Shown: positions 1 to 16,540 of the stretch, piece after piece
How positions within the stretch are numbered: the first letter of the stretch is position 1
Layout: each line of letters opens with the position of its first letter
Source of the DNA: an uncultured virus (IMG/VR IMGVR_UViG_2882593062_000003)
Taxonomy: Duplodnaviria > Heunggongvirae > Uroviricota > Caudoviricetes
DNA length: 20,000 nt
IMG/VR virus record: IMGVR_UViG_2882593062_000003
Strand: one strand, 5' to 3'
The notes under the pieces: model-generated
What the model was told of the DNA's origin: nothing
The model's input: only the letters and a program-made list of their open reading frames with translations
Database searches by the model: none
Made by a program: the position numbers and the translations under genes

Positions 1-781
1 TTATTCCAATTTGGGTTTTAATTTCATTTAAACGATTAACCTCTCTTTCATAAGATGCATTAAGCTTAAAACCTTTTAACTGCTCATTTGTAACGTCAAT
101 ATTATGGTCTATTATTTTTAGTATTTGTTTACTTGATTGAATTGACCTATTTCCTGACTTCAAAGCTTTCAACCTTTTTTCGGTCTTTTGCAATTCTTTT
201 ATTGCATACAACCTATCTACTAATAAATTATGATCAGTGAAACCAAACAAAAAAAGGAATAATACCTCATATTCATCCTTTGTCGTTGTAGAATAAAGGA
301 ATTTTAACGCATTAGTCATTGAAGTCATATCTTTTCGAATAAACTTATGCATTAATTGCCTTATTGACGGTTTTGAATTTTTAATGCTGAAAATCTCAAG
401 CTCAAGCTTTTCTCTATATTGTTTTAAAGATGGAAAGGATTCATTATTAATTTTTAATAATGAACTATCATTAAATCCTCTTTCTAATATGTAAGACTTA
501 TTATTACTTGTTAATGATAAAGAAACCACTATTCCATTCTTAAATAGGTATTCATAAACGGGCTGATTTATAGTCCTAAACTCTGGATCAGTATAGATAT
601 CTTTGCCATCCGAACCAAAACAAAAATCGATTACTCGAAGTAATGTAGTTTTACCTACATTATTTCCAGATTCAGTATTCTTCTTCGTTGTCTCATCTAT
701 TACCAAGTTTAAACCAAGCTTAAAATCTACCTTTCGGATTTCGATTTTATCTAACTTTACTATTAATTGATTTAATAGCAT
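1..781 (-). CDS. ABC-three-component / Lamassu LmuB-like ABC (SMC-like) ATPase, DUF2326-type, N-terminal part (runs off left edge)
   Basis: Not in the ORF track. Manual translation from the ATG at 781 gives MLLNQLIVKLDKIEIRKVDFKLGLNLVIDETTKKNTESGNNVGKTTLLRVIDFCFGSDGKDIYTDPEF, i.e. the GLN-I, Walker A (GNNVGKTT) and IDFC.G pattern of DUF2326 ATPases. The start overlaps the stop of the upstream middle-component gene. Confidence 0.88.
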   Translation of the reverse strand, partial: MLLNQLIVKLDKIEIRKVDFKLGLNLVIDETTKKNTESGNNVGKTTLLRVIDFCFGSDGKDIYTDPEFRTINQPVYEYLFKNGIVVSLSLTSNNKSYILERGFNDSSLLKINNESFPSLKQYREKLELEIFSIKNSKPSIRQLMHKFIRKDMTSMTNALKFLYSTTTKDEYEVLFLFLFGFTDHNLLVDRLYAIKELQKTEKRLKALKSGNRSIQSSKQILKIIDHNIDVTNEQLKGFKLNASYEREVNRLNEIKTQIGI

Positions 782-1011
782 CTTTCAATTCCAGATTTAG
801 AGTTAATACTTATAAGACCTAAAATAAATAGCCAATCTAAGGCATATAAAAAGTAACTAAACGAAATCTTTTCTGGAAAATTCTTCGCCAGCTTCTCATA
901 CAAAATTTGAATGTCAATAATTCCCATACTTTCAGAATTTAGGGTCTCTAAAATTTTTGACCCAATTACATACAAACTTTTTTCTGGTTTAATATCAATT
1001 GGTAATATCAT
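772..1011 (-). CDS. ABC-three-component middle component (MC6-like / LmuC-like)
   Basis: 79 aa, MILP..IKPEKSLYVIG..IL...FLYALDWLFILGLI pattern. Sits between the CTD protein and the ATPase and is translationally coupled to both. Confidence 0.82.
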   Translation of the reverse strand: MILPIDIKPEKSLYVIGSKILETLNSESMGIIDIQILYEKLAKNFPEKISFSYFLYALDWLFILGLISINSKSGIERCY

Positions 1012-1589
1012 CAGCCTTTGTTTGGGTTCTCTAATATCTTACAGTCGATAAAAGCTTTACAAACAATAATTACTAAACAAGCTTGAAGGTCTTCCTCCAT
1101 GATTTGTTCAAAGTTAGATGATCTTTTATAATCAATACTTAATGAATCTATTATGTTTGTTATAATTATATCTGCATATTTACAAATTAAACTGTGTTTA
1201 TCCTGATTCGGATTTTGTGCAACTAAGTCACTTACTTGCCTAATATACTTATTATTTATGCTTTTTAAAAATCTGCTTTTAGAATTAGGCTTTTCATTAT
1301 CTAGCGTTTCATAAATTTTATCTACTATTGCACCATAGTTTCCATAGTTTTCAATTACTTCTTTGTAAACCTTTATTTTATTGAATTCGATTTTTTCATT
1401 TATTTCATATAATTGTAGTGTGGTCAGACCTTGCGGTGTATCATCAAGCACTTTTTCAAGTCGGCTGATTACAATAGATAAATAAGATGGAAGTCTTTCT
1501 TGTAAATATTTGTAATCGTTAATAATTAGGGTACCGGCCGATTGGTATACTGTCCCTTTTGCTTTAAAATTAGTTAATGCTCCCTTCAT
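1011..1589 (-). CDS. ABC-three-component CTD protein (LmuA-like) with a short N-terminal motif instead of an enzymatic effector domain
   Basis: 192 aa. Contains Y.I.EKI.FN and ends in AFIDCKILENP, typical of ABC-3C C-terminal domains. Lies directly upstream of the middle component and ATPase. Confidence 0.75.
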   Translation of the reverse strand: MKGALTNFKAKGTVYQSAGTLIINDYKYLQERLPSYLSIVISRLEKVLDDTPQGLTTLQLYEINEKIEFNKIKVYKEVIENYGNYGAIVDKIYETLDNEKPNSKSRFLKSINNKYIRQVSDLVAQNPNQDKHSLICKYADIIITNIIDSLSIDYKRSSNFEQIMEEDLQACLVIIVCKAFIDCKILENPNKG

Positions 1590-1794
1590 TTTTCCCTTTA
1601 TTTATAGTCATATCTCCAGAAGTTTGGAAATTTTCTTTACCTTTTGCTTTAAATTGGATGTCACCTTTGTGACTTTTATTTGTTTTTATAGTTTTAGATA
1701 TTTTGTTCGCTTTCCTTAATGCCATAATGCTTACAATCATTGAAATGATCGAAGAGGCTCCTACAATTATGTTAAATATATCTATTGCTTTCAT
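1570..1794 (-). CDS. Small single-pass membrane protein with C-terminal motif shared with the downstream CTD protein; putative effector
   Basis: 74 aa. Hydrophobic helix at residues ~6-26, basic linker, then KGDIQFKAKGKENFQTSGDMTIN. Overlaps the next gene by 20 nt. Confidence 0.7.
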   Translation of the reverse strand: MKAIDIFNIIVGASSIISMIVSIMALRKANKISKTIKTNKSHKGDIQFKAKGKENFQTSGDMTINKGKNEGSIN

Positions 1795-1938: not shown

Positions 1939-2163
1939 ATGATCGCCGTAATGCCGGAAACCCCTGAAGAGATAGGCCAGCTTATCAAAGAACTGAGAAA
2001 AAAGCGAGGTATGACTCAAACCGAATTGGGTGAAAAATTCGGCGCGAACAAGTCAACAATTGCGCTTTATGAAAAAGGGCGTAACGGCTTCTCGGTTGCG
2101 ACATTAAAGCGATTTGCGGAGGCTTTGAATGCGGAGCTCAAAATCGATATCATATTGAAGTAG
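1939..2163 (+). CDS. XRE/Cro-CI family HTH transcriptional regulator
   Basis: IGQLIKELRKKRGMTQTELGEKFGANKSTIALYEKG is a canonical HTH_3 pattern. Confidence 0.92.
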   Translation: MIAVMPETPEEIGQLIKELRKKRGMTQTELGEKFGANKSTIALYEKGRNGFSVATLKRFAEALNAELKIDIILK

Positions 2164-2691: not shown

Positions 2692-4137
2692 ATGAATGCC
2701 TCTAGCTTTCAGGCTGGCCCCTTCTCCGGGCCCGCCCTCTACACCACGCTCTCGCACAAGCCCCTGCGCTGCCGCTTCGAGTTCAGAAAGAACCGGCGGA
2801 CCCTGCAAGCCAGCCCGGCCGGAATAATTCAGGTGCTGATCTTTCTGGGTGAGGAAGCCTCCGCCCCGCTTTCCACGAAGATCGAAACCACCCGGCCCGT
2901 CTGGGAGAACCGCTACCGCTTTCCCAACCGGCCCGACTCCATTGACCTCAACACCAAGATCGAAGGCTTTCGCCGGAGGCTGGAACTGGCTCACCTGCTG
3001 CTGATACAGGAGAAGATTGGGCCGACCCCGCGAAACCTCTACCAACTGGCCGTGTGGATGCAGAAACGCCACCAGCGCACGGGCTTCGACCCCCAGACGG
3101 AAGCCTTTCACCCGGACGCGGAAGTCCAGCACACCTTTCGCAAGGAAGCCACCGAAATGCTGAAAGGAATTCGTCGGAAGGTCGTCACGCTGGAAAGCCT
3201 CTACGGAGAGTTTATCGCCGTGCGGGGCAGACTCATCAACGACAACCGGTTCACTCGGGACGGAGAGCAGATCAGCACCGCTACCTACCAGTCGTATGGC
3301 TATCGGTGGAAGCTGATCGAAACCTTTCTCAGGGAAAATAACCTCGCCGAACGGTCTCTGTTGGAGGTAACGGCTGCCGATGCGGTGAACCTGAAAGAGT
3401 TTTTGCAGGGACAGTCCTCGCGCTACGGCCGGCCGGTCAAACACTCCACCATCGCCTATACGGTCACGTTTCTTCGGCAACTGCTGGATTATGCCGTGCT
3501 GAAAGGCTACCTGAAATACAACCCCCTGCACGCCGTGCGCAACGGGGGCAAGTCAAAAGCCAGCCCTAAGCCTCTGACCTTCGAGCAAATGGACTTCCTC
3601 GAACGGATGGACTTACCCCACGACCTGCAACACTACCTCGAAAGCTGGCTGGTGGCGGCTGAACTCTGCCTGCACCACGCCGATTTCATGGAACTGCCCA
3701 CGATGCACTTTAAGACCGATGCGGTCAGCGGGAGACGCTACTTCATTCACCCGCGGGTTAAACAGCGCCGGGCCGACATTCACATGTACGTCGATGTGAC
3801 GCCCCGCGCCGAACGCCTGCTGGCGAAGTGGGGTGGGGTGAAGGGGCTAAAGTACGCCGGTTACAGTCTGTACCATGCCCGGCTGATGCAGATCAGCCTG
3901 TTGGCAGGTCTGCGGGACAACAAGGGTAAGCCGATCAAACTAACCTTCGGCATGGGCCGGGATACGGGCCTGACGCACCGGGCGATGCTGAAAACGCCCA
4001 CGCTGGTCCTGCAGGCGAACGCGGGGCATACCTCCTCCGAAATGCTGACGAAGTACGTCGATGCCGGAGAGCAGCTACTCCTCAGCCAGATGGCCCAAAC
4101 CAATCCCTATCCTCTTCAAACGCTATCCCTCCGATGA
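2692..4137 (+). CDS. Tyrosine recombinase / integrase-like protein with atypical catalytic motifs
   Basis: SAM-like core-binding region (ISTATYQSY...TIAYTVTFLRQLLDYAVLKGYLKYNPL). Box I reads ELCLHHAD, box II reads FGMGRDT, and NAGHTSSEMLTKY keeps the His and the nucleophile Tyr. Confidence 0.8.
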   Translation: MNASSFQAGPFSGPALYTTLSHKPLRCRFEFRKNRRTLQASPAGIIQVLIFLGEEASAPLSTKIETTRPVWENRYRFPNRPDSIDLNTKIEGFRRRLELAHLLLIQEKIGPTPRNLYQLAVWMQKRHQRTGFDPQTEAFHPDAEVQHTFRKEATEMLKGIRRKVVTLESLYGEFIAVRGRLINDNRFTRDGEQISTATYQSYGYRWKLIETFLRENNLAERSLLEVTAADAVNLKEFLQGQSSRYGRPVKHSTIAYTVTFLRQLLDYAVLKGYLKYNPLHAVRNGGKSKASPKPLTFEQMDFLERMDLPHDLQHYLESWLVAAELCLHHADFMELPTMHFKTDAVSGRRYFIHPRVKQRRADIHMYVDVTPRAERLLAKWGGVKGLKYAGYSLYHARLMQISLLAGLRDNKGKPIKLTFGMGRDTGLTHRAMLKTPTLVLQANAGHTSSEMLTKYVDAGEQLLLSQMAQTNPYPLQTLSLR

Positions 4138-4871
4138 ACGCGCTGATTCCCATTCAACAGCAATCCGGGCGCACGGTGGTGTCTGCTCGTGACCTGCACA
4201 CCTTTCTGGAGGATAAACAAAAGTTTGCCGACTGGATTAAAAAACGGATTCAAAAGTACGAGTTGGTGGAGGGCGAAGATTATCTCACGTTTTCATTAAA
4301 TTCTGAAAACGGAGGGCGCTCGATTGAATACGCTCTGACGGTGGAAGCGGCCAAGGAACTGGCGATGGTTCAGGGCAACGAGAAGGGCAAACAGGCCCGG
4401 CGCTACTTCATCGAATGCGAAAAGCGGTTACAGCAGACCGTTCCCGCCCCCGAAGCAGTGGCGGGCGGTTCGGCGGAACTGATGCTGCAACAAGCGGCCC
4501 TGTTGGTCAACCACGCCCAGCAACTCACCGAGCAAAGCGGCCGGTTGGCGAAGCTGGAAACGCTGGTCACGCACCTGATTTCGGGCGGTCGCTACAGCCA
4601 GGCCGCCCCGGTCGCCCCGCCCCCACCTTCGACCAGCCGGGAGGAAATCAACAAGCTCATCAACGACTACTGCGGAGAGCGGGACATTCCCCAGCACGAA
4701 GCCTGGAACTGGCTGTATGACCGGCTCTATCAGCTTTACCGGGTCAACATCCGGGGGTATCGCCGTCAGCCGGGCGTCTCGCTGCTGGAAGTGGCCGAGC
4801 GGCACGGTCATCTGGAAAAGCTGTACGGCATCATTATGTCCGAACTCTTCTACCATGACTACACTCCGTGA
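4134..4871 (+). CDS. AntA/AntB-family phage antirepressor
   Basis: VSARDLHTFLE..FADWIKKRI..Y..GEDY..EYALTVEAAKELAMVQGNEKGKQARRYFIECEK, followed by a coiled coil and a C-terminal helical domain. ATGA overlap with the recombinase. Confidence 0.92.
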   Translation: MNALIPIQQQSGRTVVSARDLHTFLEDKQKFADWIKKRIQKYELVEGEDYLTFSLNSENGGRSIEYALTVEAAKELAMVQGNEKGKQARRYFIECEKRLQQTVPAPEAVAGGSAELMLQQAALLVNHAQQLTEQSGRLAKLETLVTHLISGGRYSQAAPVAPPPPSTSREEINKLINDYCGERDIPQHEAWNWLYDRLYQLYRVNIRGYRRQPGVSLLEVAERHGHLEKLYGIIMSELFYHDYTP

Positions 4872-5202
4872 CCGGCCTGCCCAGCCCATTAAAGTCGCCG
4901 TCTTCACGCTTCGCATTGGGGCGAATACGGATTGGGTGTACCTCAGCCAGATCGTGCGCTTTGAAGCGGCCGGAAGCTATAGCTGGCTTATTTTGAAAGA
5001 CGGACGAAAATACCTGATTGCAATTCATCTGGCCCGTTTGGCCCGCCAGCTGCCCGGTTTTGTGCGGGTTCACCGTTCGCATCTGGTCAACCGGGAGTGG
5101 ATTCTGGCCGACATAGATATAACCTTGCCTGAAGCGGTGATTCAATTAAAAACCGGGGAGCGTATCCCTGTTTCCCGACGAAAAGGCAAAGCATTACGAT
5201 AA
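4855..5202 (+). CDS. Stand-alone LytTR DNA-binding domain protein
   Basis: IVRFEAAGSYSWL...FVRVHRSHLVN...IPVSRRK is the LytTR signature. The ATG at 4855 overlapping the antirepressor end is preferred over the 4717 start. Confidence 0.88.
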   Translation: MTTLRDRPAQPIKVAVFTLRIGANTDWVYLSQIVRFEAAGSYSWLILKDGRKYLIAIHLARLARQLPGFVRVHRSHLVNREWILADIDITLPEAVIQLKTGERIPVSRRKGKALR

Positions 5203-5235
5203 CCGCTCACTGATGCCCTCTTTAATAACCGAAGC

Positions 5236-6321
5236 ATGAAAGTCAGGTATACCTTTCGCTGCTATCCTACGGACACACAGGCTCAGGCGTTAAGCCGGGT
5301 ATTCGGACACACCCGCTTTGTGTGGAACTGGGCTTTGCGACTGCGTACGGATGCTTGGGGCCATGGTGAGCGCATTAATTACAACCAGACTAGTGCGGCC
5401 CTGACTGCTCTCAAAAAGACCGCTGAATACCAATGGCTCAATGAGGTCAGTTGCGTTCCGCTTCAACAAAGTTTGAGAAACCTGCAAAAGGCGTTTTTGA
5501 ACTTCTTTGCCGGTCGGACAAGGCGCCCCCGATTCAAGAAAAAGCGGCACAAACAAGCAGCTGAATACACAGCATCGGCTTTCAAGTATCAGGATGGCGA
5601 ACTGAGTCTGGCAAAGATCGGCAAGTTAAAAGTTCGCTGGTCGCGCCCGTTTCAGTCCCAGCCTACTACCGTTACCGTCATACAGACGCCAACGGGTCGG
5701 TATTATGTCACCCTAGTACTTGATGAAATGCCTCAGCCTTACAATAAAACAGGAGAGTTGATTGGCATTGATTTAGGTATCAATCGACTGGCAACGCTCA
5801 GTAATGGCGAACACATTCCCAACTTGAAATTTACAAAAAAGCACGAACGTCAGTTGGCGAAAGCCCAAAAGTCCTTGAGCCGGAAAACCAAAGGTTCAGG
5901 ACGTTGGATTCGTCAACGAATGAAGGTGGCCCGTGTGCATGAAAGATTGACCAATGCCCGTATTGACCACATCCATAAGATTACCACCGACCTGGTGCGT
6001 AGGTTTGATGTGATTGCAGTGGAGGATTTGAATGTTCGGGGCATGCTAAGAAATAAAAAACTGGCAAAGCAGATTAGCGATGCAAGTTTTGGCCGATTCG
6101 TTTCCATGCTTCAATACAAGTGCGTTTGGCGTGGTAAAGAACTGGTGAAGATTGACCGTTACTTCCCTAGCAGTAAACGCTGCTCATGCTGCGGCTACAT
6201 TGCTCAGACGCTACCCCTTTCGGTGCGTAGCTGGCAGTGTCCCGAGTGTCAGTCAATACATGACAGAGACGAAAATGCGTCTCGTAATATTCTGAATTTT
6301 GCGGTGGGACACCCCGTTTGA
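5236..6321 (+). CDS. tnpB: IS200/IS605-family RNA-guided endonuclease TnpB
   Basis: N-terminal YTFRCYPT..FG..RFVWN, RuvC triad intact (GIDLG, VEDL, DRDENA), zinc ribbon CSCCG..CPEC. Confidence 0.95.
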   Translation: MKVRYTFRCYPTDTQAQALSRVFGHTRFVWNWALRLRTDAWGHGERINYNQTSAALTALKKTAEYQWLNEVSCVPLQQSLRNLQKAFLNFFAGRTRRPRFKKKRHKQAAEYTASAFKYQDGELSLAKIGKLKVRWSRPFQSQPTTVTVIQTPTGRYYVTLVLDEMPQPYNKTGELIGIDLGINRLATLSNGEHIPNLKFTKKHERQLAKAQKSLSRKTKGSGRWIRQRMKVARVHERLTNARIDHIHKITTDLVRRFDVIAVEDLNVRGMLRNKKLAKQISDASFGRFVSMLQYKCVWRGKELVKIDRYFPSSKRCSCCGYIAQTLPLSVRSWQCPECQSIHDRDENASRNILNFAVGHPV

Positions 6322-6467
6322 GCGCGTGGATTCGATGTAAGACCTTCCGGGCTTTGCCTGTAGGGCGGTTGAAGAGGAAGCGTGAACTGTCTCAGGCTAT
6401 ATATTAGTTTGAGAATCCCTAACATAGTATGGGATAGAAGATGTCAAGACGCGAGGTAGGCCCGGAT
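6300..6467 (+). ncRNA. TnpB omegaRNA (reRNA) scaffold plus putative guide (6448-~6467)
   Basis: Stem-loops after tnpB, e.g. CTCAGGCTA/TAGTTTGAG at 6391-6413 with G-U pairs and ATCCC/GGGAT at 6415-6435. Ends in the IS605-type right-end pattern GAATCCC...GATGTCAA (TCAA at 6444-6447). The 5' boundary is approximate. Confidence 0.75.
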
Positions 6468-6896
6468 TCGGGCCAGATATTTCGGTTTCAGGTAGTCGGC
6501 CAGTTCGGCCTTATCGTCTTCGGAGAGGCCCAGAATGCCGTCTCCGTACTTCTTTTTCAAACCTTCCGCCTTCGGGTCGGAATCGTCGACCGAAAACGTC
6601 CGGTCGAACACCTTCGTGAAGATTTTGTCGTAGAAACCGCCCTTGTCGCGCAGGGTGACCCGGTCGGTCGGTTGGTTTTTTCGCCGTTTGATGGCTATGG
6701 TCAGGGGTTTGTAGGCCGGTTCGATCGGCGATCCGTCGACGTTTTCGCCCCGGTAAAGCCGCTCCTGATTCAGCCGGCGGATGTAATCGCTGTTTTCCTC
6801 GATCACCTCGCCCAGCAGCTGGTACAGCACCGCCGGGGTGAGCGTCAGGAACGGTTCGACGAAGCAGGTAAACAGCGATTTGCGGGCGGAAGCCAT
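6444..6896 (-). CDS. Phage neck / virion morphogenesis-like protein
   Basis: 150 aa. The motif Y.PLTIAIKRRKNQPTDRVTLRDKGGFY..ILGL resembles phage virion morphogenesis / tail-completion proteins. Last gene of the structural operon. Confidence 0.6.
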   Translation of the reverse strand: MASARKSLFTCFVEPFLTLTPAVLYQLLGEVIEENSDYIRRLNQERLYRGENVDGSPIEPAYKPLTIAIKRRKNQPTDRVTLRDKGGFYDKIFTKVFDRTFSVDDSDPKAEGLKKKYGDGILGLSEDDKAELADYLKPKYLARIRAYLAS

Positions 6897-8023
6897 CAGT
6901 ATTCGGCGTCAAAGAGGCTACCGATGCGGATTTTCTTCCGGGATTCCTCCTGAAGGCAGGCAGGCCGCATCTTTTCCAGTTGGGCCTTCAGGTCCTTGAT
7001 CAGGCGGTCGCGCCTGGCGGCCAGCCCGTTGTCAGAGGTGCTGCTGCCCTGTCCGTACAGCGCGACATAGGCTTCATTCTTCAGCTGCTGTTTGACTGAG
7101 TTGACCCGGTCGCTTGTCGACAGCTCCTCCAGCACGTCGCAGGCCAGCAGATGGAGCAGCGCCCCGGTCAGCATATCCTTATTGGTCAGCAGGGTGTTGG
7201 TGATGTCGCAGCGCACCTCGATGACCGCGTTCAGGCCCCATGTCTGAAGGCTGACGGCCTTCTCTTCCGCCCAGCTGAGGGTGCGGCCCGTGCCGACCGA
7301 CTCGACGTACACCGGCTCAATGTTCAGGTACGGCGAGCGGGTCCGGATGAATTCGGCTTCGATGCCTCCGCAGGTGTTGCAGTCGGCCACGTTCCAGCCC
7401 CGCTCGGCGCCGATCGCCCGCACGTCGGTCGGCAGGTCGCTTTCGAAGTAGCCGACCAGATAATACCCGCCCTGACGGCTGTACAGCCAGCAGTCGGCCG
7501 TGTTCCAGGCGGTACGGCCCGACAGCGTGGTGGTCAGGTTGACGGTCTTGATCGGGGTGGCCGCATCCGAATGGAACACGTACAGGGGCAGGTTGGTAAC
7601 GGGCCCTGACAGCTGAAGACCCAGCTTGACCAGGTTGACAGCCGTATCCCGACGGGGCAGGCGGATGCGCAGGCCCAAAAAGCGGCCTGTTTTGTTGAAG
7701 GCGCCCTGAATATTGCCCTCCTTCGGATGCAGGGGCGTTGCTTCCAGCAGCGGCCGGGCGGGTGGGTTGCCCGCGACCAGCAGGCCCAGTTTGTTGATGG
7801 CGCCCTTTTCGATCTGGGTGTACCATTCCATCAGGTCACCCCCGGCCGAAAGGTTGGGGCCCAGGGCGGTCAGTACATCCGAGCGAAGGAGCTTATGGGC
7901 GTCCTGCAGGTAGACGGTCGGGGCGTTGTGGGCATCGTCGCTGTAGTCGGTATCGGGCCGGGAGCCGGGATACAGGCCGACCGTGCCGACGAGCAGGGAA
8001 TGAAGTTGGGTCAGGTCCAGCAT
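6896..8023 (-). CDS. Phage structural protein, putative head-tail adaptor with inserted domain
   Basis: 375 aa, downstream of the capsid gene, TGATG-coupled to the neck gene, helical C-terminus, internal CNTC. The function is inferred from position. Confidence 0.5.
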   Translation of the reverse strand: MLDLTQLHSLLVGTVGLYPGSRPDTDYSDDAHNAPTVYLQDAHKLLRSDVLTALGPNLSAGGDLMEWYTQIEKGAINKLGLLVAGNPPARPLLEATPLHPKEGNIQGAFNKTGRFLGLRIRLPRRDTAVNLVKLGLQLSGPVTNLPLYVFHSDAATPIKTVNLTTTLSGRTAWNTADCWLYSRQGGYYLVGYFESDLPTDVRAIGAERGWNVADCNTCGGIEAEFIRTRSPYLNIEPVYVESVGTGRTLSWAEEKAVSLQTWGLNAVIEVRCDITNTLLTNKDMLTGALLHLLACDVLEELSTSDRVNSVKQQLKNEAYVALYGQGSSTSDNGLAARRDRLIKDLKAQLEKMRPACLQEESRKKIRIGSLFDAEY

Positions 8024-8049
8024 GGGCGATAGTTGTTTTTTACATAAAG

Positions 8050-8077
8050 CCCGGTGACCGCATTGGCAGCCACCGGG
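8050..8077 (-). terminator. Hairpin, possible terminator after the signal-peptide gene
   Basis: CCCGGTG (8050-8056) / CACCGGG (8071-8077), followed by CTTTAT on the minus strand. Confidence 0.4.
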
Positions 8078-8098
8078 ACCCGAATTATTCCTAAACCC

Positions 8099-8563
8099 TT
8101 AACCTTTTTCTTCACCGGGGCTGTGGCCCCACAATTTTCGACGGCCGCCCGGCCCTTTGAACCGCAGCAACAGAAGCGAGAGCAGCGAGAAGGCGCCGAA
8201 CATGTCGGTGCGAAGCTGCTTGATCGTCAGCGAGTCGCGTAGCGTTCCGGCTGCGTTGTTGATCCCGGTTTTTTTCAGCCGGTTGATGTTTCCCTTCCAG
8301 ACGACCTCGCCAGTCCGCCCGTCTCGGATTTCGACCAGCCCCTTATACCCGTTGTGGTTGAAGGTGACCGGTTTGGGGACCAGGTAGGTCTTTTTGTAGT
8401 TCGGCGAGTTGTAAACGGCCGTGGAGTCGTAAAACTCGATCGTCGTCGAGCCGGTGGAGGCTATGACGGTATTGGCAAACGAAGCCTTGCCCGTGGTCTG
8501 TGCCTCGGAGAAACCGGCGATCAGCAGCAGGACGGACCCAAAAAAAAGTTGAAACCCTTTCAT
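8099..8563 (-). CDS. Hypothetical exported/membrane protein
   Basis: N-terminal signal peptide MKGFQLFFGSVLLLIAGFSEA-Q (Gln at +1, common in Bacteroidota) and a short hydrophobic C-terminal segment followed by basic residues. Confidence 0.65.
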   Translation of the reverse strand: MKGFQLFFGSVLLLIAGFSEAQTTGKASFANTVIASTGSTTIEFYDSTAVYNSPNYKKTYLVPKPVTFNHNGYKGLVEIRDGRTGEVVWKGNINRLKKTGINNAAGTLRDSLTIKQLRTDMFGAFSLLSLLLLRFKGPGGRRKLWGHSPGEEKG

Positions 8564-8611
8564 GATTTCCGAGTTGTTTAAAAAAGGTGTTGGTTAATTC
8601 CGTACCCAGAG

Positions 8612-8645
8612 AAAAGTCAGGCCCCATAATCGAGGCCTGACTTTT
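8612..8645. terminator. Intrinsic terminator after the major capsid gene (potentially bidirectional)
   Basis: AAAAGTCAGGCC-N10-GGCCTGACTTTT perfect inverted repeat, 8 nt after the capsid stop. Confidence 0.8.
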
Positions 8646-8653
8646 TGCTTTTA

Positions 8654-9706
8654 TCAAGCCGGCGTGATCTCGAACCGCTTGATAGGCGATTCGCCACTCG
8701 TCGAGGTGAAGCCAGAAGAGATGATGAAGTCGCAGGACAGCTTCACATCCATCTGCCGGGCCTCATTCGCGCAGGTGATCTTCTGCAGAACCCCCCACTC
8801 CCAGCCTTCGAACAGATCGTCCGTCGTGCGGGCCCAGCTGGTCAGGTCCGACTTGTTGTCGAACCCGTTCCAGGCGTCCAGATACTCCGGAGAGCCCAGC
8901 GCCGGTGCAGTGCGGTAGTCGTAGTCGATCGCGTTGACGATCCCCACCGAACCGGTCGGCATCACGAAGTACACCGTGCGGTTCGAGCCGCGGGCGATGC
9001 GGTTGGTCCACTCGAAGTTTTCGATACCGGCCCCCTGCATGATCGCTTTGGTGTTGTAGATCGACCCGCCACCCGGGTTCATCAGCTTGTTGCGGTCGGC
9101 CAGCGCGTAGGTCGAGGCCACCACTGAATACGGGCCTTCGAAGTCCAGCTCGGCCATGATCGCCGGCAGGTTGTTGTAGAAGTCTTCCGGCTTCGAGGAA
9201 GGCAGCTGGTAGGCACCGGAGACGGCATCGTACAGCGGGTAGCTGCCCGGCGTCATCGTCGTGTCCTTGTTGGTGTCCAGGTGAGCCGCGCAGAGCGTAT
9301 CCAGATACTCAAGCACCGCCCGGCGGGCGTTCTTGTACTGGTGGGCCAGCACGTCTTCGGCCGTCACGTAGTTGTCCTCCAGCGTTGCCGGGACAATCGA
9401 CATGTCGATGGCTACGTGAATGCGGCTCAGCGTCTTCAGCGTCGGCGAGATGTCCGGGCCGGAGATCGAGCAACTGCGCACGGTCAGGACCGTGTGGGCG
9501 TACTTGTTGAGGATGGGAATCTTGACCGTCCGGGTGAACGGCAGTTTCCGGATTTTTTCAAGCAGAGCCTTGCTGAACAGCTCATTGGACTGCGCGTAAT
9601 AGGAGTTCAGGGCCCCGTAGTGGCTCAGACGTCCTTCCAATGCTCCGAACTTGCCAGGCGAGATGCTTGCAATTACCTCGGGTAACAACAATGCGGTAAG
9701 CGCCAT
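8654..9706 (-). CDS. Putative major capsid protein
   Basis: 350 aa, directly after the scaffold gene and followed by a terminator. The TVKIPIL segment is typical of capsid proteins, and it ends SPIKRFEI. Confidence 0.72.
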   Translation of the reverse strand: MALTALLLPEVIASISPGKFGALEGRLSHYGALNSYYAQSNELFSKALLEKIRKLPFTRTVKIPILNKYAHTVLTVRSCSISGPDISPTLKTLSRIHVAIDMSIVPATLEDNYVTAEDVLAHQYKNARRAVLEYLDTLCAAHLDTNKDTTMTPGSYPLYDAVSGAYQLPSSKPEDFYNNLPAIMAELDFEGPYSVVASTYALADRNKLMNPGGGSIYNTKAIMQGAGIENFEWTNRIARGSNRTVYFVMPTGSVGIVNAIDYDYRTAPALGSPEYLDAWNGFDNKSDLTSWARTTDDLFEGWEWGVLQKITCANEARQMDVKLSCDFIISSGFTSTSGESPIKRFEITPA

Positions 9707-9791
9707 GATTGAAAAAGTGGTTTAAAAGTGAAACATGGCTCACGATTGGCAGTCCGGTAGCGCTTCGTAAGTATTAATTGAGAAAAATGCG

Positions 9792-10706
9792 TTAAACGAT
9801 GCCGGCGAGCTTCTTCTGCTCGGCGACAAACTTCTTCCAGTCTGGGGTCCCGAAAGCCAGCCCTTGACCGGCAGCCTCCTTGTAGATGTCCGTCAGCGTT
9901 TTGGCCCCACCGGTTCCGCCGTTTCCGGGTTTGTGGGTGCCACCGCCGGCCTGCTGATGCCCTTCTGAAGCCAGCAGCAGCTTATGGTTCTGTTTGATGA
10001 TCTCCAGCGGGGACAGATACCGGGCCTCATTAGCGTTCACCAGCGGGTCCTTCGATCCTTTCTTAGTGAAATACACCTCCCCTTCCTCATCGGAATGGGA
10101 TTCGTACTTCGCTTCGAAAAAGTCCTTCAGATCGCTGATGGCCTCGGCTTTCGCCTTGTTTTTGGCCGCTTCCTCCTTGATCGTGGGATCGATCGGGACA
10201 TTGGCTGCCCGCAGATCCGCTTTGATGACGGCCGAAACCTGCTTCTGGAAGGCTTTTTTCTCGCCCTCCTCTTTTTCCTGCTGAAACTTTTCGAGCTGCT
10301 TCTGCAAACCGTCGATGACCGCATCGCCTTTGGGGGAACCTCCCCCTTTCAGGGCGGCTTTCAGCTTCTCGATCTGGGCGTCGGAGAAGGGCAGCAGGCC
10401 ATCTTCCTCCAGCTTGGCGACCCATTCCCGCGTCCGCATCTTGTCGGGCTTTGTCTGTCCGGTGGCCAAAGCCAGCATGCCGTCGACGGACCGGTAAAAT
10501 TTGGCGCCTTCCTGATCGATGGCTTCCTGATTCTTTTTGGTCACCTCTGCCGCCAGTTCGGCATCGTATTCGGCCTTCGTTTTGACCAGGTGACCTTTGC
10601 CCGTCAGGAATTTGGAGGCATCGGCGGTGCGCTTTTCAAGCAGCTGGGTGAACAGATCCGGGGTTTCGGTCAGTTCGGTTTCGAGTTGTTCCAGTGTAAG
10701 GGCCAT
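9792..10706 (-). CDS. Putative capsid scaffolding protein
   Basis: 304 aa, charged coiled coil, Gly-rich linker (QQAGGGT..GGTGG) and short C-terminal helix, directly upstream of the capsid gene. Confidence 0.7.
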   Translation of the reverse strand: MALTLEQLETELTETPDLFTQLLEKRTADASKFLTGKGHLVKTKAEYDAELAAEVTKKNQEAIDQEGAKFYRSVDGMLALATGQTKPDKMRTREWVAKLEEDGLLPFSDAQIEKLKAALKGGGSPKGDAVIDGLQKQLEKFQQEKEEGEKKAFQKQVSAVIKADLRAANVPIDPTIKEEAAKNKAKAEAISDLKDFFEAKYESHSDEEGEVYFTKKGSKDPLVNANEARYLSPLEIIKQNHKLLLASEGHQQAGGGTHKPGNGGTGGAKTLTDIYKEAAGQGLAFGTPDWKKFVAEQKKLAGIV

Positions 10707-10765
10707 AATCGGTCCGGTGGAGTTATGGTTTGTAAAGAATGTACGGTTTTAGCACTCTGTTTCAG

Positions 10766-11380
10766 TTACTTCCCGGGCTGATGCAGCACCGTAAAGGCCA
10801 GACCCAGGGCGTCATACGCCGAAAGGCCGGTGGCCTGCTGGGGCTTGGAGAAGGCCTCGAAGTCCAGCGGGTCGATGAACTGAATCTCCCGAAGCTTCTT
10901 ATCCTCGTGTTCGTCGCCGGAAGGCAGCTTAACGAAGGTTTGCTTCAGGATGATCACCTTGTTGTCCGGCAGCTGGGGCAACGGGATGATGTCCCGAATG
11001 TTGAACTGCTTTTTTTTGTCCTGATTGCCATACAGCGGCTTTGACAGGTCCACTTCCTGCGTTTCAGTGGTTGACGCGGCAATTTCCGCAGCCTTGGCAG
11101 CCTCGGCGGCCTGCTGCTCTTTCCGGCGTTCTTCGGCAAACTGGGCTTTGAACTCCTCCATTTGCCGGCTGAACTCCTTTGAAAGCTCGCCTTGATGCGC
11201 CGAAACGGCATCGGCTACGGCTTTCTTAAATTCTTCGGTTTCATGCAGCGGCACCTGGGGCTGGTTTCCCTCTCCCTGGGGCTCCGGCTGGTTTGCCGTT
11301 TCCGGGCTGCTGGCCGGCGGGGTTGGCTGGCTGGGGGTTGAGGCCGACGTCTGGTCGGGACTTGAGTTGCTCTTCGACAT
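10766..11380 (-). CDS. Hypothetical phage head-module protein
   Basis: 204 aa with disordered P/S/Q N-terminus, coiled coil and globular C-terminus. Overlaps the portal 3' end. Confidence 0.6.
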   Translation of the reverse strand: MSKSNSSPDQTSASTPSQPTPPASSPETANQPEPQGEGNQPQVPLHETEEFKKAVADAVSAHQGELSKEFSRQMEEFKAQFAEERRKEQQAAEAAKAAEIAASTTETQEVDLSKPLYGNQDKKKQFNIRDIIPLPQLPDNKVIILKQTFVKLPSGDEHEDKKLREIQFIDPLDFEAFSKPQQATGLSAYDALGLAFTVLHQPGK

Positions 11381-13082
11381 AGTCGTATAGTTTTTGAGAA
11401 ATGGAAGCGATGCGTTTGGGGTAGTCGGTCGCCAGACCGAAGCGCTCGATCGGCATATTGTTTTCCCGCTCGAACCGGCGGATCAGGCCCGACAGGCCCG
11501 TAGCGACCCCGAACCCGATCGGATCGGTCACGTTGACCTGGGCGGTGGTCAGCTCCTCCATCGTCCGGAACGGGTAAGGGTTCAGGTCGTTGATCATCCG
11601 GTAGCGCAGGCGCCGGGAAGCGTCCGAGCGGGCGTAGAAGTCCTGCAGCATGCTGTCGATCTCCTCCAGCAGCCAGTCCGACATACCGCCTTCCTTAGCC
11701 AGCTTGTAGAGCGTGGCCAGCGTTTCGCTGGAAAGCACTGAAAACCGGCGGCCGTAGTCGACCGTGCAGCCCAGATAGTTGTCACCGTAGCGGAGCCGGC
11801 CGATGGTGTTGATCAGGTTGCGGTGCAGGTTCTCGAAATGCACGGCCAGGTACTGACACACCTGCCGGGCCCGTTCCAGAATGGCCATCACCTGATCCTC
11901 GTTGACAGCGGCCTTTTTCATGGGACTTCCTTCGTAGCCGGTGGCCGTCTTCAGAATCTCGCTGCGGATCGAGGCCAGCCAGTCCCGGTGAAAGGTCAGC
12001 GCGTTGTTGTCGACGCCGATATAGCCTGCCGGCGGCCGCATGTCGGCATCCGTATTGGTCTGAGGAGCCGGAATGGGGATGCGCGAGCCGAGGCCGAACT
12101 TGTTCTTGTTCAGACAGCGGGGGCAGGAGCGGCCCGTACCCACTTTATGTCCCTGATCGTTGTAGGCCATCAGGGTTCCGTGCTCGCAGTAGAAACCTTC
12201 CAGCGACTTGTAATCGCAGTTTTCTGACTCCAGATGCCAGAACAGCGGGATAGCGGAGGTCAGCCGGAACAAGCGGAAGGCTCCCTCCTCGAACACCAGA
12301 CCGTCCAGCTTACCCAGCAGGGGGCGAAGGACCGTATTCGATAGCAGGGGATTCGTGCCGGAGACGTCCGACCAGGCCTTGAACACCGGAGCGACGCCCA
12401 GCGGGTGGGGGGATGCCGTTTCCAGCGTCCAGTCTCCGCCTTTGGGCTTGATGTAGATGCTGTAGGCTTCGCTGTCGTACAGCGCACGGCGCAGCACATC
12501 GGGCGTTTCAGGCAGGGGTGGCAGGTCAAAGAAGGCAAACACCAGCTGACCGGCCTGCTGATGAAACTTATGGGCCTCGATGGCCTGCACCTGATCCAGT
12601 GTCAGCAGGTAGACGTACGGTTCGGGGAAGTCGGTGGTCTGCTCTCGGGGCAAATCGACGACGACCAGCGCGTTGGGCGACTCAAACAGGGCGTTGTGGC
12701 AGTCGCCGGAGATGAAACCTGACAGGTTGATCTGCTCCAGATAATCGTCGAAGTCGCGCTGGAGCTTCTCATCCCGCATATCCACAGAAATGTTGCGGTC
12801 CTGGGCGTGGTGGACGGCTGAACAGGCGTCGGAGATCTCGTCGACGACTTCGACGGTACAGAGGGGCCAGTAAATCTGACGGATGAGCTGGTCTAAGGTA
12901 CCTTTGCCGTTGACGGAAGGGCGAATGACGGTATCGACGAAGCGGGGCCAATAAGGCGAAGCCGAGGCTGCGTCGGTGGCAGCCTCGGCATGGAGCCGGT
13001 GACGGTCATCATCAGCCTTGGCGGCCTGAAGTGCCCTTCGATTGGCTTTTTTTACCCTCGGATCGTTGGGTGTCAGCGGCAT
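11241..13082 (-). CDS. Putative portal protein
   Basis: ~613 aa from the ATG at 13082 (MPLTPNDP). Motifs HPLGVAPV, VDYGRRF and largely helical C-terminal half. Lies between terminase and scaffold/capsid genes. Confidence 0.72.
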   Translation of the reverse strand: MPLTPNDPRVKKANRRALQAAKADDDRHRLHAEAATDAASASPYWPRFVDTVIRPSVNGKGTLDQLIRQIYWPLCTVEVVDEISDACSAVHHAQDRNISVDMRDEKLQRDFDDYLEQINLSGFISGDCHNALFESPNALVVVDLPREQTTDFPEPYVYLLTLDQVQAIEAHKFHQQAGQLVFAFFDLPPLPETPDVLRRALYDSEAYSIYIKPKGGDWTLETASPHPLGVAPVFKAWSDVSGTNPLLSNTVLRPLLGKLDGLVFEEGAFRLFRLTSAIPLFWHLESENCDYKSLEGFYCEHGTLMAYNDQGHKVGTGRSCPRCLNKNKFGLGSRIPIPAPQTNTDADMRPPAGYIGVDNNALTFHRDWLASIRSEILKTATGYEGSPMKKAAVNEDQVMAILERARQVCQYLAVHFENLHRNLINTIGRLRYGDNYLGCTVDYGRRFSVLSSETLATLYKLAKEGGMSDWLLEEIDSMLQDFYARSDASRRLRYRMINDLNPYPFRTMEELTTAQVNVTDPIGFGVATGLSGLIRRFERENNMPIERFGLATDYPKRIASISQKLYDYVEEQLKSRPDVGLNPQPANPAGQQPGNGKPAGAPGRGKPAPGAAA

Positions 13083-13257
13083 TCGTCTCTGTTTCCGTTG
13101 GCGGGATGTCGGCATGTACGGTGGGCACGACTTCCCAGCATTGTACCCCGATGCGCTGTTCGAGATCGAGCAGGCGGGCTGCGTGATCATCGTCCAGCTC
13201 AATCTCCCGGCCGAAGTAGGGCATGTCCGGCTGGTGTATTTCCCGCAGCCTGACCAT
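13012..13257 (-). CDS. Small hypothetical phage protein
   Basis: 81 aa from the ATG at 13257 (MVRLREIH...), TAATG-coupled to the stop of the upstream gene. Confidence 0.65.
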   Translation of the reverse strand: MVRLREIHQPDMPYFGREIELDDDHAARLLDLEQRIGVQCWEVVPTVHADIPPTETETNAADTQRSEGKKSQSKGTSGRQG

Positions 13258-13880
13258 TAATTCTTGATCAGGGAGTGGTTGAAGCCGAGGTCGAGGACTT
13301 TGGCGTCTCTCCACCAGCCTTTCGGAAGTTCCAGTTCAAAGTTGAACAGCGTCAGGCTGTGCAGCTGGCCGCCGGCCGGATCCGATACGAAGGCGTTCAG
13401 GATGTCGATGCCGCCACCGCCTTCGAGGAACACGATCTGACGATCACCGAGCAGCATGTACATCCACAGCTGAGGCAGGTCGGCCGAGGAGTTGGCCCAG
13501 GCGAACAGATTCTCCATTTCCTTGTACTGAGTCGGTGACAGGCCCATGTATTGACCGCGGAGCATCGGCACGGACTGACCGACGACGTAGCTGCGGCCGT
13601 CAGGCGTCGAGTTGTCGTTGGAGCCGACTTTCACGGCTTCGGTGGCCGTCAGCTCCGGGGCAAAGATCTTTCCGGTCGGCGCGACGATCTTCGTGTCGTC
13701 GGAAGCGGCCAGGGCCGTCGTCCAATTGGAGAGCGTGAGGATGGTCGTGTTGGTGAAGGTGGCCGTCCCCTGCTTCTTTTGCAGGACGACTCGTCGGACC
13801 TGTTGCAGGATAGTCGCGCAGTTCGCTTCGCTTACGGCGGTAAGAACGCCCGTCAGGGCGGCACAGCTTTTGAATTGCAT
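13257..13880 (-). CDS. Phage structural protein, possibly major tail tube protein
   Basis: 207 aa from the ATG at 13880 (MQFKSCAA...), beta-rich and T/S/G-rich. Resembles tube-like proteins of Bacteroidota siphoviruses from recall, not from a search. Confidence 0.5.
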   Translation of the reverse strand: MQFKSCAALTGVLTAVSEANCATILQQVRRVVLQKKQGTATFTNTTILTLSNWTTALAASDDTKIVAPTGKIFAPELTATEAVKVGSNDNSTPDGRSYVVGQSVPMLRGQYMGLSPTQYKEMENLFAWANSSADLPQLWMYMLLGDRQIVFLEGGGGIDILNAFVSDPAGGQLHSLTLFNFELELPKGWWRDAKVLDLGFNHSLIKN

Positions 13881-14021
13881 GGATGTTTGTCGGAAACGCT
13901 CGGTGAGCGAGCGAGGTGAAACAACGGTTGTTTCCGACAGTCCGGTAGCCGGATAGAGTGAGAGCAAAGATAATTATTATCTGAAACTTGTCAAGCATAT
14001 TTACTTGCCCTCATAAGCATG

Positions 14022-15506
14022 CTAACTGTTGTCGGCGCCCCTTAGAGTTCTGGGCGGCCGGAAGTATTTAGTGAACACCGCCCCGCGCACGGCGTCGATG
14101 CCATGGTTAAAGGCGTCGATCGGCGTGTTGGTAGCCACCCCACCCATCATGATCCACTGGTAGTTGTTGCGTTCGCGGAGCAGGTTGCGGCTCCGGCGGG
14201 TCACATACACCTCGAACTCCTTCAGCTTATTGATGCCGGCGCTGATCGAGTCGGGGCCTTTCGTCGTGGGCAGGACCATCAGGCCCGGCAGTCGGGTGCC
14301 GCCGGGAAGAATCGTGCCCCTTCTGAGCTCTTCGATGGATTTCGGTTCGGCGCTGTCGGCGTAGGTCTCCTGATGACGGGGGATTCTGAGGGCTTCAAAC
14401 CGCTGGGCGATATCCGGGTTGGTCAGGCCCGTTTCGTATAGCAGCTCGTCCAGGTACAGCCGGCGGCCCATCTTGCCGATCCGGATCAGGGCCGTCGGGT
14501 CGTTGGTGTAGCCGAAATCCATGCCGTTGAAAATGACCTCGCAGTCGGCCGGAAACTCGTCGCATTCCTTCCAGTCGCCGAACACCAGCGCTTCCAGCGA
14601 CGGTTTGGGGTCCTGCTGGTAGAGGCTGTTGAAGGTGACGGGGTTCTCGTCGCGGATCTTCTCGATCTTCGCCTGGCTGTGGCGCTCGGGCCAGAGGGCC
14701 TGACCCAGAGGACGGGGGTCGAAATCGTTAATATCCTCAGTCCGAAGGGCCGGAAACGACACGACGCGCCAGCCGGTGGGGTTTTCCGGGCTCAGAATGC
14801 CGTCGCGGGCCAGCAGGCGGCCGCCCAGGTCGTCTTCGTGCCAGCGCGTCTGGATCAGCACCTGCGCGGAGTGGTTGTGCAGGCGCGTTTCAAACACATC
14901 CGTGTACCAGTTCCAGAGGTTTTCCCGGATCGTCAGCGACTGGGCGTCCTGCCGGTCCTTGATCGGATCGTCGATAATGCCGTCGTCGACAGGGGTACCC
15001 GTCAGCGAGCCTCCGACCCCCACGGTTTTGACGAAGCCGCGGCGGCCGACGACCTCGAAAATCTCACTGTTACGCAGGGCCACGCCTTTGGCCACGGTCA
15101 CCACGTTGGTGGCGTTCAGGCGGGTGGCCGGAAACAGGCGGTAATAGGGTTCGTCGTCCATTCGGCGCTGGATATCCCGGTTGAAGGAGCTGGCCAGCGT
15201 GGCCGAGTAGGAGGCTACGACGATTTTCCGGTCGGGATCTTTGCCCAGCACCCAGGCGGGGTAGGAGCGGGTGGAAATCTCCGATTTGCCGTGCTGGGGA
15301 GGCACGAACAGCATCAGGCGGGTGATCTCCCGTTGGTAGACGCGCTGCAGCTCGTCGGCGATGAGGGCGTGAAACCACTGCATCTGGTAGCCGTCCCGGA
15401 TGTAAGGCAAAAAATCCCGGAAGTTATTCCTCGCCAGAATCCTCTGATACAGTTCCAGCTCTAATCGTTGCTCTAAGAGCCGCAATTCGTGTGCGGAGTT
15501 CTTCAT
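14022..15506 (-). CDS. terL: Phage terminase large subunit
   Basis: Walker A region VPPQHGKSE, Walker B IIDDP, QTRWHEDDL, SLYQQDP, and nuclease motifs GMDFGYTNDP, ADSAEPKSI, NHGIDAVR. Confidence 0.95.
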   Translation of the reverse strand: MKNSAHELRLLEQRLELELYQRILARNNFRDFLPYIRDGYQMQWFHALIADELQRVYQREITRLMLFVPPQHGKSEISTRSYPAWVLGKDPDRKIVVASYSATLASSFNRDIQRRMDDEPYYRLFPATRLNATNVVTVAKGVALRNSEIFEVVGRRGFVKTVGVGGSLTGTPVDDGIIDDPIKDRQDAQSLTIRENLWNWYTDVFETRLHNHSAQVLIQTRWHEDDLGGRLLARDGILSPENPTGWRVVSFPALRTEDINDFDPRPLGQALWPERHSQAKIEKIRDENPVTFNSLYQQDPKPSLEALVFGDWKECDEFPADCEVIFNGMDFGYTNDPTALIRIGKMGRRLYLDELLYETGLTNPDIAQRFEALRIPRHQETYADSAEPKSIEELRRGTILPGGTRLPGLMVLPTTKGPDSISAGINKLKEFEVYVTRRSRNLLRERNNYQWIMMGGVATNTPIDAFNHGIDAVRGAVFTKYFRPPRTLRGADNS

Positions 15507-16083: not shown

Positions 16084-16150
16084 AAAATGACGGTGGGTAA
16101 AACCAGTAAATAATTCAATAAAAGTATACTTAAAAAATTATGTAAGCAAT

Positions 16151-16181
16151 TTTGGCAGTTTATATAAATTTATTAAATTTG
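16151..16181 (+). promoter_or_regulatory. Bacteroidota sigma70 promoter for the rightward operon
   Basis: TTTG (16151-16154), 19-nt spacer, TAAATTTG (16174-16181), inside the AT-rich divergent intergenic region. Confidence 0.7.
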
Positions 16182-16206
16182 CTTATACTTAAAGCAAAGC
16201 ATAATT

Positions 16207-16524: not shown

Positions 16525-16540
16525 ATCGAAATAATCATAC

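Follow-up and report, generated by a model that had tools for sequence, protein, structure and literature searches.

ABC-3C systems are counted within the Lamassu superfamily in the available parts of two papers (PMC12663957; PMC10586767). According to the accessible text of the first (PMC12663957), LmuA is kept monomeric within an A1B2C1 complex by its C-terminal domain (CTD), its release is proposed to follow DNA-end sensing and ATP hydrolysis, and CTD-CTD contacts hold together the tetramer that is the active form. LmuA carries N-terminal enzymatic domains, which are given there as Cap4, Mrr, protease, Sir2, HNH, SMEK, lipase, and FMO. The subject of this work is a related four-gene cassette in a 20,000-nucleotide (nt) stretch of DNA from an uncultured virus of the Caudoviricetes (IMG/VR record IMGVR_UViG_2882593062_000003), and this whole stretch is called the window. 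The CTD protein of the cassette has no enzymatic domain, and a short motif at its N-terminus recurs at the C-terminus of a small membrane protein encoded directly upstream.

Such an arrangement of motifs is known from amyloid signalling. In the available text of two preprints, the pairs NWD2/HET-S of fungi and Bell/NLR and Bab/Agp of bacteria share a scheme in which oligomerisation of the receptor gathers its N-terminal motifs, these adopt a cross-beta fold, and the fold templates the identical C-terminal motif of a membrane-targeting effector encoded next to it (bioRxiv 10.1101/2024.11.07.622273; 10.1101/2020.01.06.895854). Bab/Agp (BASS11, E. coli ECOR25) gives antiphage abortive infection, which the same portion of the first preprint describes as abolished by proline substitutions in either motif (bioRxiv 10.1101/2024.11.07.622273). 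The motifs of bacterial amyloid signalling sequences (BASS) are described in the accessible part of the second as about 25 residues long, enriched in Q, N, and G, and depleted in K (bioRxiv 10.1101/2020.01.06.895854).

The cassette consists of four tightly packed genes on the minus strand of window positions 1-1794, encoding a transmembrane (TM) protein, a CTD10 protein, an MC6 protein, and an ATPase. Protein lengths are given in amino acids (aa) and ORF stands for open reading frame.

1570-1794, minus strand: ORF of the 74-aa small membrane protein, the candidate effector, in which an N-terminal TM helix is followed by a basic linker and by the motif at the C-terminus.
1723-1779, minus strand: predicted TM helix, residues 6-24 of the 74-aa protein, best 19-residue Kyte-Doolittle window (mean 2.17).
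1011-1589, minus strand: gene of the 192-aa effector-less CTD10 protein (PF20275), the component in LmuA position.
1029-1481, minus strand: CTD10 domain (Pfam), residues 37-187 of the 192-aa protein.
772-1011, minus strand: gene of the 79-aa ABC-3C middle component (MC) MC6 (PF20293), in LmuC position.
1-781, minus strand: 5' part of the SMC-like ABC ATPase gene, in LmuB position, which runs off the window (full 560-aa gene at L002:6642-8324, minus strand).

The 192-aa protein matches CTD10 (PF20275, E=9.7e-16, 59 bits against a cut-off of 28.1, residues 37-187), the 79-aa protein encoded between it and the ATPase matches MC6 (PF20293, E=1.5e-20, 73.4 bits against 27.2), and the 560-aa ATPase matches DUF2326 (PF10088, 58.4 bits against 28.7). 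The ATPase translation contains the Walker A sequence GNNVGKTT, a long central insert, and a Walker-B-like RFVLHD. An NCBIfam search gave zero matches for all four proteins. The presence of MC6 and a DUF2326 ATPase downstream of the CTD10 gene identifies an ABC-3C (Lamassu-family) cassette: it has the DUF2326-type SMC-like ATPase, the MC between CTD gene and ATPase, and a third component that ends in a CTD. The component it lacks is an effector domain fused N-terminally to the CTD, a fusion that reportedly belongs to the original ABC-3C description by Krishnan et al. (2020). Just 36 residues, with no family match, precede CTD10, which leaves no space for an effector domain, as had been claimed in the initial annotation made from the letters of the window. 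The missing fused effector is the cassette's point of variation within ABC-3C. The AF2 model of the 192-aa protein is an all-alpha seven-helix bundle at residues 35-182, with residues 1-32 disordered (pLDDT <50). A Foldseek comparison of this model with the PDB found nothing at E<=0.001, the top match being the YydD-YydB integrative model 9a6c_B (E=0.099, TMq 0.48), and a profile search of PDB sequences gave chance-level FliS matches only (E>=0.11).

The shared motif, also called the tag below, is 23 residues long; it closes the 74-aa membrane protein and opens the 192-aa protein.

1600-1668, minus strand: effector-side motif copy, KGDIQFKAKGKENFQTSGDMTIN, residues 43-65 of the 74-aa protein.
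1518-1586, minus strand: sensor-side motif copy, KGALTNFKAKGTVYQSAGTLIIN, residues 2-24 of the 192-aa protein.
1550-1568, no strand assigned: copy 1 of a 19-nt direct repeat, the other copy lying at 1635-1653 (89% identical, spacing 85 nt).

The initial annotation had aligned these two termini, and its ORFs, coordinates, and consensus all hold. The last 40 residues of the 74-aa protein and the first 40 of the 192-aa protein reach a local alignment score of 39, the shuffled controls averaging 17.7 +/- 3.6 and 1 of 2000 shuffles reaching 39. A six-frame regular-expression scan of the whole 6.93-Mb genome finds the consensus at exactly two sites, 1600-1668 and 1518-1586. The window pair by itself is a resemblance moderately above chance; what supports it strongly is that every related locus examined shows it again. 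The 19-nt direct repeat underlies the FKAKG core of both copies and is at most weak evidence for recent gene conversion, because all the codons are A/T-rich preferred ones.

Related loci were drawn from a genome collection and a metagenome (L003, L004), a 401-genome phylum sample, plasmids, and IMG/VR prophage contigs; in the prophage-contig scan that yielded loci, two subsets of a 48-sequence alignment served as queries. CTD10 matches occurred in 12 genomes of the phylum sample, 5 of them with the short, effector-less form. A class-level sample of 401 genomes added no short-form locus, an IMG/VR scan with close homologues gave no locus, and a phage collection gave no match. The sources together provide 16 distinct short-form loci (19 with three duplicates), namely the window, L003, L004, L010-12, L014, L022, L031-33, L035, L037-39, and L041, hosted by Bacteroidota genomes, metagenome contigs, prophage contigs, and Clostridium plasmids. 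In all 16 a gene on the same strand lies upstream and encodes a protein of 57-112 aa that has a single N-terminal TM helix (two in L038-L041), and in all 16 the tail motif of this protein matches the N-terminal end of the CTD10 protein from the same locus. The distance from TM stop to CTD start is -20 to +7 nt with a frame offset of 1 or 2, and in six loci 2-7 nt separate the TM stop from the CTD start behind it.

These distances bear on the reading that one gene has been broken by a frameshift, or is read through a programmed frameshift, to give a TM-repeat-repeat-CTD10 fusion. In the window the 74-aa and 192-aa ORFs share 20 nt, read in different frames and located at an A-rich stretch, and a +1 shift would fuse the two. 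Nevertheless, every one of the 16 loci has two ORFs, six of them with a stop and gap and with either frame offset across the set, and no conserved frameshift site or fusion was found among them. A CTD10 profile search without length limits points the same way. It returned 621 representative clusters (50% identity) at E<=1e-3, 357 of them at E<=1e-10; among the best 150 of the 621, 142 are 173-224 aa long, those with printed sequences starting at a G/N/Q-rich tag, and five long proteins have SMEK_N, HNH-like, or other N-termini and no TM helix. A single frameshifted gene was thus rejected as very improbable, and the fused homologues that would have undone the initial annotation's proposal did not appear. 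The eight closest homologues of the 192-aa protein are likewise 192-201 aa long, and all open with a conserved F-x-A-x-G...QQ...DI-x-N tag.

Two further observations concern individual loci. P0002 (64% identity to the 192-aa protein) and P0174 (65% to the 74-aa protein) are the closest homologues, come from the same 57,348-nt source contig, and carry matching F-x-AKG..NYQ tags; judged by sequence, they probably represent a 17th locus. L022 and L031, on two related large plasmids of Clostridium botulinum (with identical proteins in IMG/VR locus L036), carry the four-gene cassette at one shared site, where its neighbours are a P63C-domain gene and a capsid gene, a phage-plasmid-like context. Their alleles have slightly different tags, on both partners.

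The TM gene is tied to the effector-less form. None of 10 distinct long-form CTD10 proteins, with SMEK_N or HNH-like effector domains, has an upstream TM partner (0/10), and the upstream ORFs, where present, have Kyte-Doolittle values <=1.15 and alignment scores <=18; 18 of the 28 input loci were left out of this control as duplicates or for lack of a match to the C-terminal regular expression. Across five loci extended to about 10-12 kb, the conserved genes are TM, CTD10, MC6, and ATPase only, so that the TM protein is the only candidate effector. It is likely the killing effector of the system.

The 74-aa protein has a K-rich basic linker after its hydrophobic 19-mer, and its AF2 model shows a helix at residues 3-40 and a low-confidence tail. 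It has zero matches in Pfam, NCBIfam, or PADLOC, including to any Bell/HeLo-like domain, and annotation resting on these resources would therefore miss the membrane partner. In an ESM Atlas search the nearest clusters were all without names. A profile built from seven TM partners retrieves 32 proteins of 51-120 aa without annotation, the named ones being called 'hypothetical protein'. The printed sequences of this family have a TM helix with a conserved small/polar face (SIISLI...), a basic linker, and the tag. All 34 family proteins (the 32 and two plasmid proteins) have a 19-residue window with a Kyte-Doolittle value >=1.6, and their mean content of K and R is 3.5 in the 15 residues after the helix versus 0.6 before it (n=34). 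Since K and R concentrate after the helix, the tail is predicted to be cytoplasmic, on the same side as the CTD10 protein.

Variants of this layout occur. In the prophage loci L038 (2166-2411), L039 (668-913), and L041 (1537-1782), the partner has two hydrophobic helices and keeps the motif-matched tail, which is a second architecture of the same effector idea. The linker of the partner at L037:2236-2487 consists of about 25 consecutive asparagines directly ahead of the tag. Poly-N is itself prion-like. P0189 (120 aa, on a 598-nt contig) is a TM-plus-tag protein with about 50 extra residues past the tag and a precomputed annotation as PF27135; it may be a fused or extended form.

The TM protein might instead be a regulator, an antitoxin-like sequesterer of the tag, or an unrelated holin-like prophage gene, with the killing activity residing in the CTD10 tag or the ATPase. 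Prophages commonly encode small TM proteins whose tails are charged, and the unnamed ESM Atlas neighbours agree with such a role. The gene nonetheless follows the effector-less form strictly (16/16 versus 0/10), shares its tag, and occurs in non-prophage chromosomal loci as well, and no other conserved gene supplies an effector. A non-effector role is for these reasons improbable.

The sequence of the motif differs strongly from locus to locus, as the following pairs illustrate.

Window: effector tail FKAKGKENFQTSGDMTIN, sensor N-terminus FKAKGTVYQSAGTLIIN.
L011: effector tail QTHSGNGDNIS, sensor N-terminus QKHSGDGDNLS.
L022: effector tail IENSGDNKGTMSGIITGGV, sensor N-terminus LDNSGDNTGTIAGAIEGNV.
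L037: effector tail NNHGNNSGIQIGNNNGDIN, sensor N-terminus NNHGNNDGLQIGVNKGPIN.
L041: effector tail QRGGSFSQNTQNNY, sensor N-terminus QRGGIGSTNIQNNF.

Alignable motif cores cover 10-27 columns across loci. Within loci the two copies co-vary, as the pairing proposed in the initial annotation requires. The summed alignment score of the 16 cognate pairs is 895 versus 462 +/- 46 for permuted partners (maximum 699), and 0 of 200,000 permutations reach the cognate sum, a test that overstates independence since the loci are related by descent. Comparison with orthologous tags addresses this in part: per locus, only 0-3 of the 15 other loci have a CTD10 tag closer than the tail of the locus's own partner. 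Out of 16 columns and 16 rows, the cognate partner ranks top in 14 and 11 respectively, and elsewhere second, always after a close relative. CTD10 domains across loci are mostly 23-50% identical. Because the partner's own tail surpasses most orthologous tags while the CTD10 domains are this divergent, the motif copies appear to be held alike within a locus as the pair diverges between loci.

The same data settle the question of chance likeness between two low-complexity segments. The score of 39 in the window is modest and 1 of 2000 shuffles equals it. Set against this, the likeness occurs in 16 of 16 loci with locus-specific motifs, no permutation reaches the cognate sum, and the consensus is unique to two sites of the genome. 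The permutation test and the genome-wide uniqueness refute a chance resemblance, which is extremely improbable.

The composition of the tag is also distinctive. Measured against the remainder of the protein, residues 2-28 of 146 short representatives hold more G (3.15x), Q (2.5x), N (2.4x), and T (1.7x), and less L, E, K, Y, F, and C. Together, G, N, and Q make up a fraction of 0.33 in this region versus 0.13 in the remainder. The G/N/Q bias agrees with that reported in the accessible text on bacterial amyloid signalling sequences (bioRxiv 10.1101/2020.01.06.895854). The tag region is disordered or of low confidence in the AF2 models of both the 192-aa and the 74-aa protein. The motif core strings had no match in the text of the BASS paper or the searchable supplements of PMC8086366.

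The gene architecture, the family memberships, the tie of the TM partner to the effector-less form, the co-variation, the tag composition and predicted disorder, and the predicted topology of the membrane protein are directly supported. They are the ground for a proposed mechanism, in which tag-tag binding, a cross-beta structure, toxicity of the TM protein, and a function in defence are all putative. The mechanism is proposed because the cassette combines the release and CTD oligomerisation of Lamassu with the motif layout of an amyloid pair. At rest, a complex of ATPase and MC6 would hold the CTD10 protein as a monomer with a disordered tag. Foreign DNA would be sensed by the ATPase, and the CTD10 protein would be released and would oligomerise through its CTD by analogy with LmuA, whose oligomerisation on release, stated in the initial annotation, is in print as release and CTD-mediated tetramerisation in the available text of PMC12663957. 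The clustered tags would nucleate a homotypic, most likely in-register cross-beta (amyloid-like) assembly, which would recruit and template the matching tails of the membrane protein and draw its TM helices together into a lesion of the membrane. Death of the cell would come before the infecting phage completes, by abortive infection.

As a whole, this account is on balance probable: an ABC-3C cassette in which the CTD-fused enzyme effector is replaced by a G/N/Q-rich tag of about 20-25 residues, mirrored on the cytoplasmic tail of a co-translated single-pass membrane protein, and in which CTD oligomerisation nucleates a homotypic, likely cross-beta assembly that leads to a membrane lesion and abortive infection. 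Its parts differ in strength. It is very likely that the tags mediate direct homotypic contact between the two proteins. Whether this contact is a templated amyloid, as opposed to a fixed small oligomer, is evenly balanced.

The main rival is a stable non-amyloid tether. In this alternative the tags form a defined small hetero-oligomeric beta structure that anchors the CTD10-MC6-ATPase complex at the inner membrane, with no templating or polymerisation; the TM protein is an anchor that places the sensor at the site of phage DNA entry, or is clustered 1:1 when the CTDs tetramerise. Co-variation and adjacency fit any specific binding interface, the tight translational coupling (-20 to +7 nt) suggests stoichiometric co-assembly, the alignable core is short in some loci (10-11 residues), and the TM helix appears constitutively inserted in the membrane. 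Binding partners, however, need complementarity, and here the two sides look alike in every locus. This resemblance across at least four very different motif types favours a homotypic in-register arrangement. A pure anchor would also leave a system of four conserved genes effector-less, and the G/N/Q-rich disordered character of the tags fits known amyloid signalling motifs. The tether is accordingly considered rather unlikely.

Besides the common descent of the loci, several points weigh against templated amyloid signalling. The window motif is K-rich, with 5 K in the 23 effector-side residues, and BASS motifs are reported as K-depleted. In L010 and L011 the alignable core has only 10-11 residues, shorter than the roughly 25 typical of BASS. 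The candidate effector is a constitutively hydrophobic TM helix, not a latent soluble domain of the Bell/HeLo type, which makes the control of toxicity before activation a difficulty. The searchable papers contain no report of defence by a short-form CTD10/MC6 cassette. In PADLOC, the CTD10, MC6, and TM proteins have no match to any model, including those of LmuA and LmuC, and the ATPase matches the candidate family PDC-M68B (1e-45), with LmuB models weaker (2.5e-11). Of the Lamassu/ABC-3C label in the initial annotation, ABC-3C thus stands by Pfam and Lamassu applies loosely. Overall, its observation is confirmed and its interpretation partly supported.

The cassette lies in an island of 28% guanine-plus-cytosine (GC) content (28-33% across the block), and the surrounding DNA has 50-60% GC. 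One flank carries the restriction-modification unit described below; on the opposite flank an integrase gene comes first, with AntA, an IS605-type TnpB, and phage terminase genes after it.

1939-2163, plus strand: Xre-type HTH_3 protein, 74 aa, divergent from the cassette.
2692-20000: prophage-like region, with several large ORFs without a Pfam match.
2692-4137: integrase-like ORF.
4134-4871: AntA antirepressor.
5236-6321: IS605 OrfB/TnpB.
14022-15506 and 15424-16083: large and small terminase subunits.
17890-18543: PD-(D/E)XK protein.
18735-20000: second integrase-like ORF.
L002:5194-6639, plus strand: 481-aa ORF, also within the low-GC block, which converges on the ATPase gene and stops 3 nt from it, with a sub-threshold NERD match (E=0.0011).

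A terminator-like hairpin (2180-2203) lies by the HTH_3 gene. This gene (1939-2163) was rejected as a component of the system, since it is not conserved in the four other extended loci, and for the same reason it is probably part of the flanking element. The 481-aa NERD-like ORF is absent beside the cassette in these four loci and was likewise rejected; it may be a separate, uncharacterised defence gene. A type II restriction-modification unit is found at L002:416-3441 (G000:C12 ~92415-95440), just upstream of the window and about 3.2 kb beyond the ATPase gene. It comprises a C-5 cytosine (Dcm) methylase (PF00145, 5.7e-92), an MvaI/BcnI endonuclease (1.7e-42), and a Vsr mismatch endonuclease (9.7e-34). 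The nearness of this unit places the cassette in a defence island. Cassettes homologous to it are found on IMG/VR prophage contigs and on capsid-encoding plasmids.

The initial annotation knew of no such coupling for Lamassu, and the literature search agrees: none of the listed matches, judged largely by titles and the starts of abstracts, links amyloid signalling with ABC-3C, Lamassu, DUF2326, or SMC-like ATPases. Short CTD10 forms may have been mentioned earlier in Krishnan et al. (2020), which lies outside the literature compared. Amyloid signalling has so far been tied to NLR-type (once TGP-type) receptors and largely to multicellular microbes. If the proposed mechanism is true, such signalling extends past both NLR-type receptors and multicellular bacteria, and the motif becomes a transferable link from any sensor that oligomerises to a killer at the membrane. 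Conservation and co-evolution of the pairing span Bacteroidota, Clostridium plasmids, and prophage contigs, and the pairing accounts for a large set of apparently effector-less Lamassu-like operons. With an effector of about 70 aa and a tag of about 25 residues, the system is very small and genetically tractable, and it suits the study of proximity-induced nucleation of functional amyloids and of motif divergence that insulates parallel immune pathways.

A broader reading, tentative and slightly short of an even chance, takes prion-like amyloid templating as a general effector coupling in a large branch of Lamassu/ABC-3C that has been overlooked. A CTD10 adaptor with a nucleating tag of about 25 residues would fire a 51-97-aa membrane protein, which would be the smallest known executioner of cell death under amyloid control. 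The locus-specific tag types, which are QQAGxDI-like, NSGDNxGxIxG-like, QxHSGxGxN-like, and GGIGSxNxQ-like, would be new BASS families that insulate co-resident systems.

Compared with Lamassu and DdmABC, the cassette has the same order of CTD protein, small middle component, and SMC-like ABC ATPase. The Lamassu CTD docks the effector and mediates tetramerisation, and the window cassette has a CTD-bearing component too. The difference is that LmuA has an enzymatic N-terminal domain, whereas the window cassette has none and has a separate membrane protein in addition; the word 'membrane' is absent from the main text of the Lamassu paper PMC12663957. Long-form CTD10 ABC-3C systems (Priestia megaterium plasmid L021; prophage loci L042-L050) share CTD10, MC6, and DUF2326 in the same order. 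They differ in the SMEK_N or HNH-like effector fused to the CTD protein and in having neither an upstream TM gene nor a tag (0/10).

Of the features of described amyloid pairs, the cassette has the shared motif at the C-terminus of the effector and the sensor-side N-terminus, the adjacent collinear genes, and the G/N/Q-enriched motif of about 20-25 residues with patterned hydrophobic positions, and lacks an NLR (NACHT/NB-ARC) sensor and a Bell/HeLo-like effector domain. The likeness in layout and composition that the initial annotation had pointed out thus fits the accessible descriptions of BASS and FASS. The cassette resembles Bab/Agp, as the available preprint text presents that pair, in its adjacent collinear genes, in a small effector that begins with a hydrophobic helix at the N-terminus and has a C-terminal motif of about 23 residues, in the motif at the sensor-side N-terminus, and in a prophage or defence-island location and an abortive-infection logic, the last only proposed for the window cassette; this likeness is one of layout. 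Bab differs in its helical Bell-like domain of about 90 aa, in place of which one TM helix and a linker are found here (two helices in L038-L041), and the words ABC, Lamassu, and SMC occur 0 times in the body text of that preprint (bioRxiv 10.1101/2024.11.07.622273). With BASS1-10 and HET-S/NWD2, in the accessible accounts, the cassette shares a Q/N/G motif, about 25 residues long, that sits at the C-terminus of the effector and the N-terminus of the receptor, as well as collinear genes at short distance, and with BASS1-10 also the occurrence of several unrelated motif families on the same domain scaffolds. The receptors of BASS1-10 are described there as NACHT/NB-ARC NLRs, mainly from multicellular Actinobacteria and Cyanobacteria (bioRxiv 10.1101/2020.01.06.895854), whereas the sensor here, compared by layout and composition, is an SMC-like ABC ATPase system of Bacteroidota, Clostridium plasmids, and prophage contigs. 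So far, immune gene pairs of amyloid signalling have been the only known case of a tag mirrored on the tail of the neighbouring protein. On the proposed reading, the cassette is a known signalling principle on a new sensor class, with a new minimal effector, within a family of hundreds of clusters.

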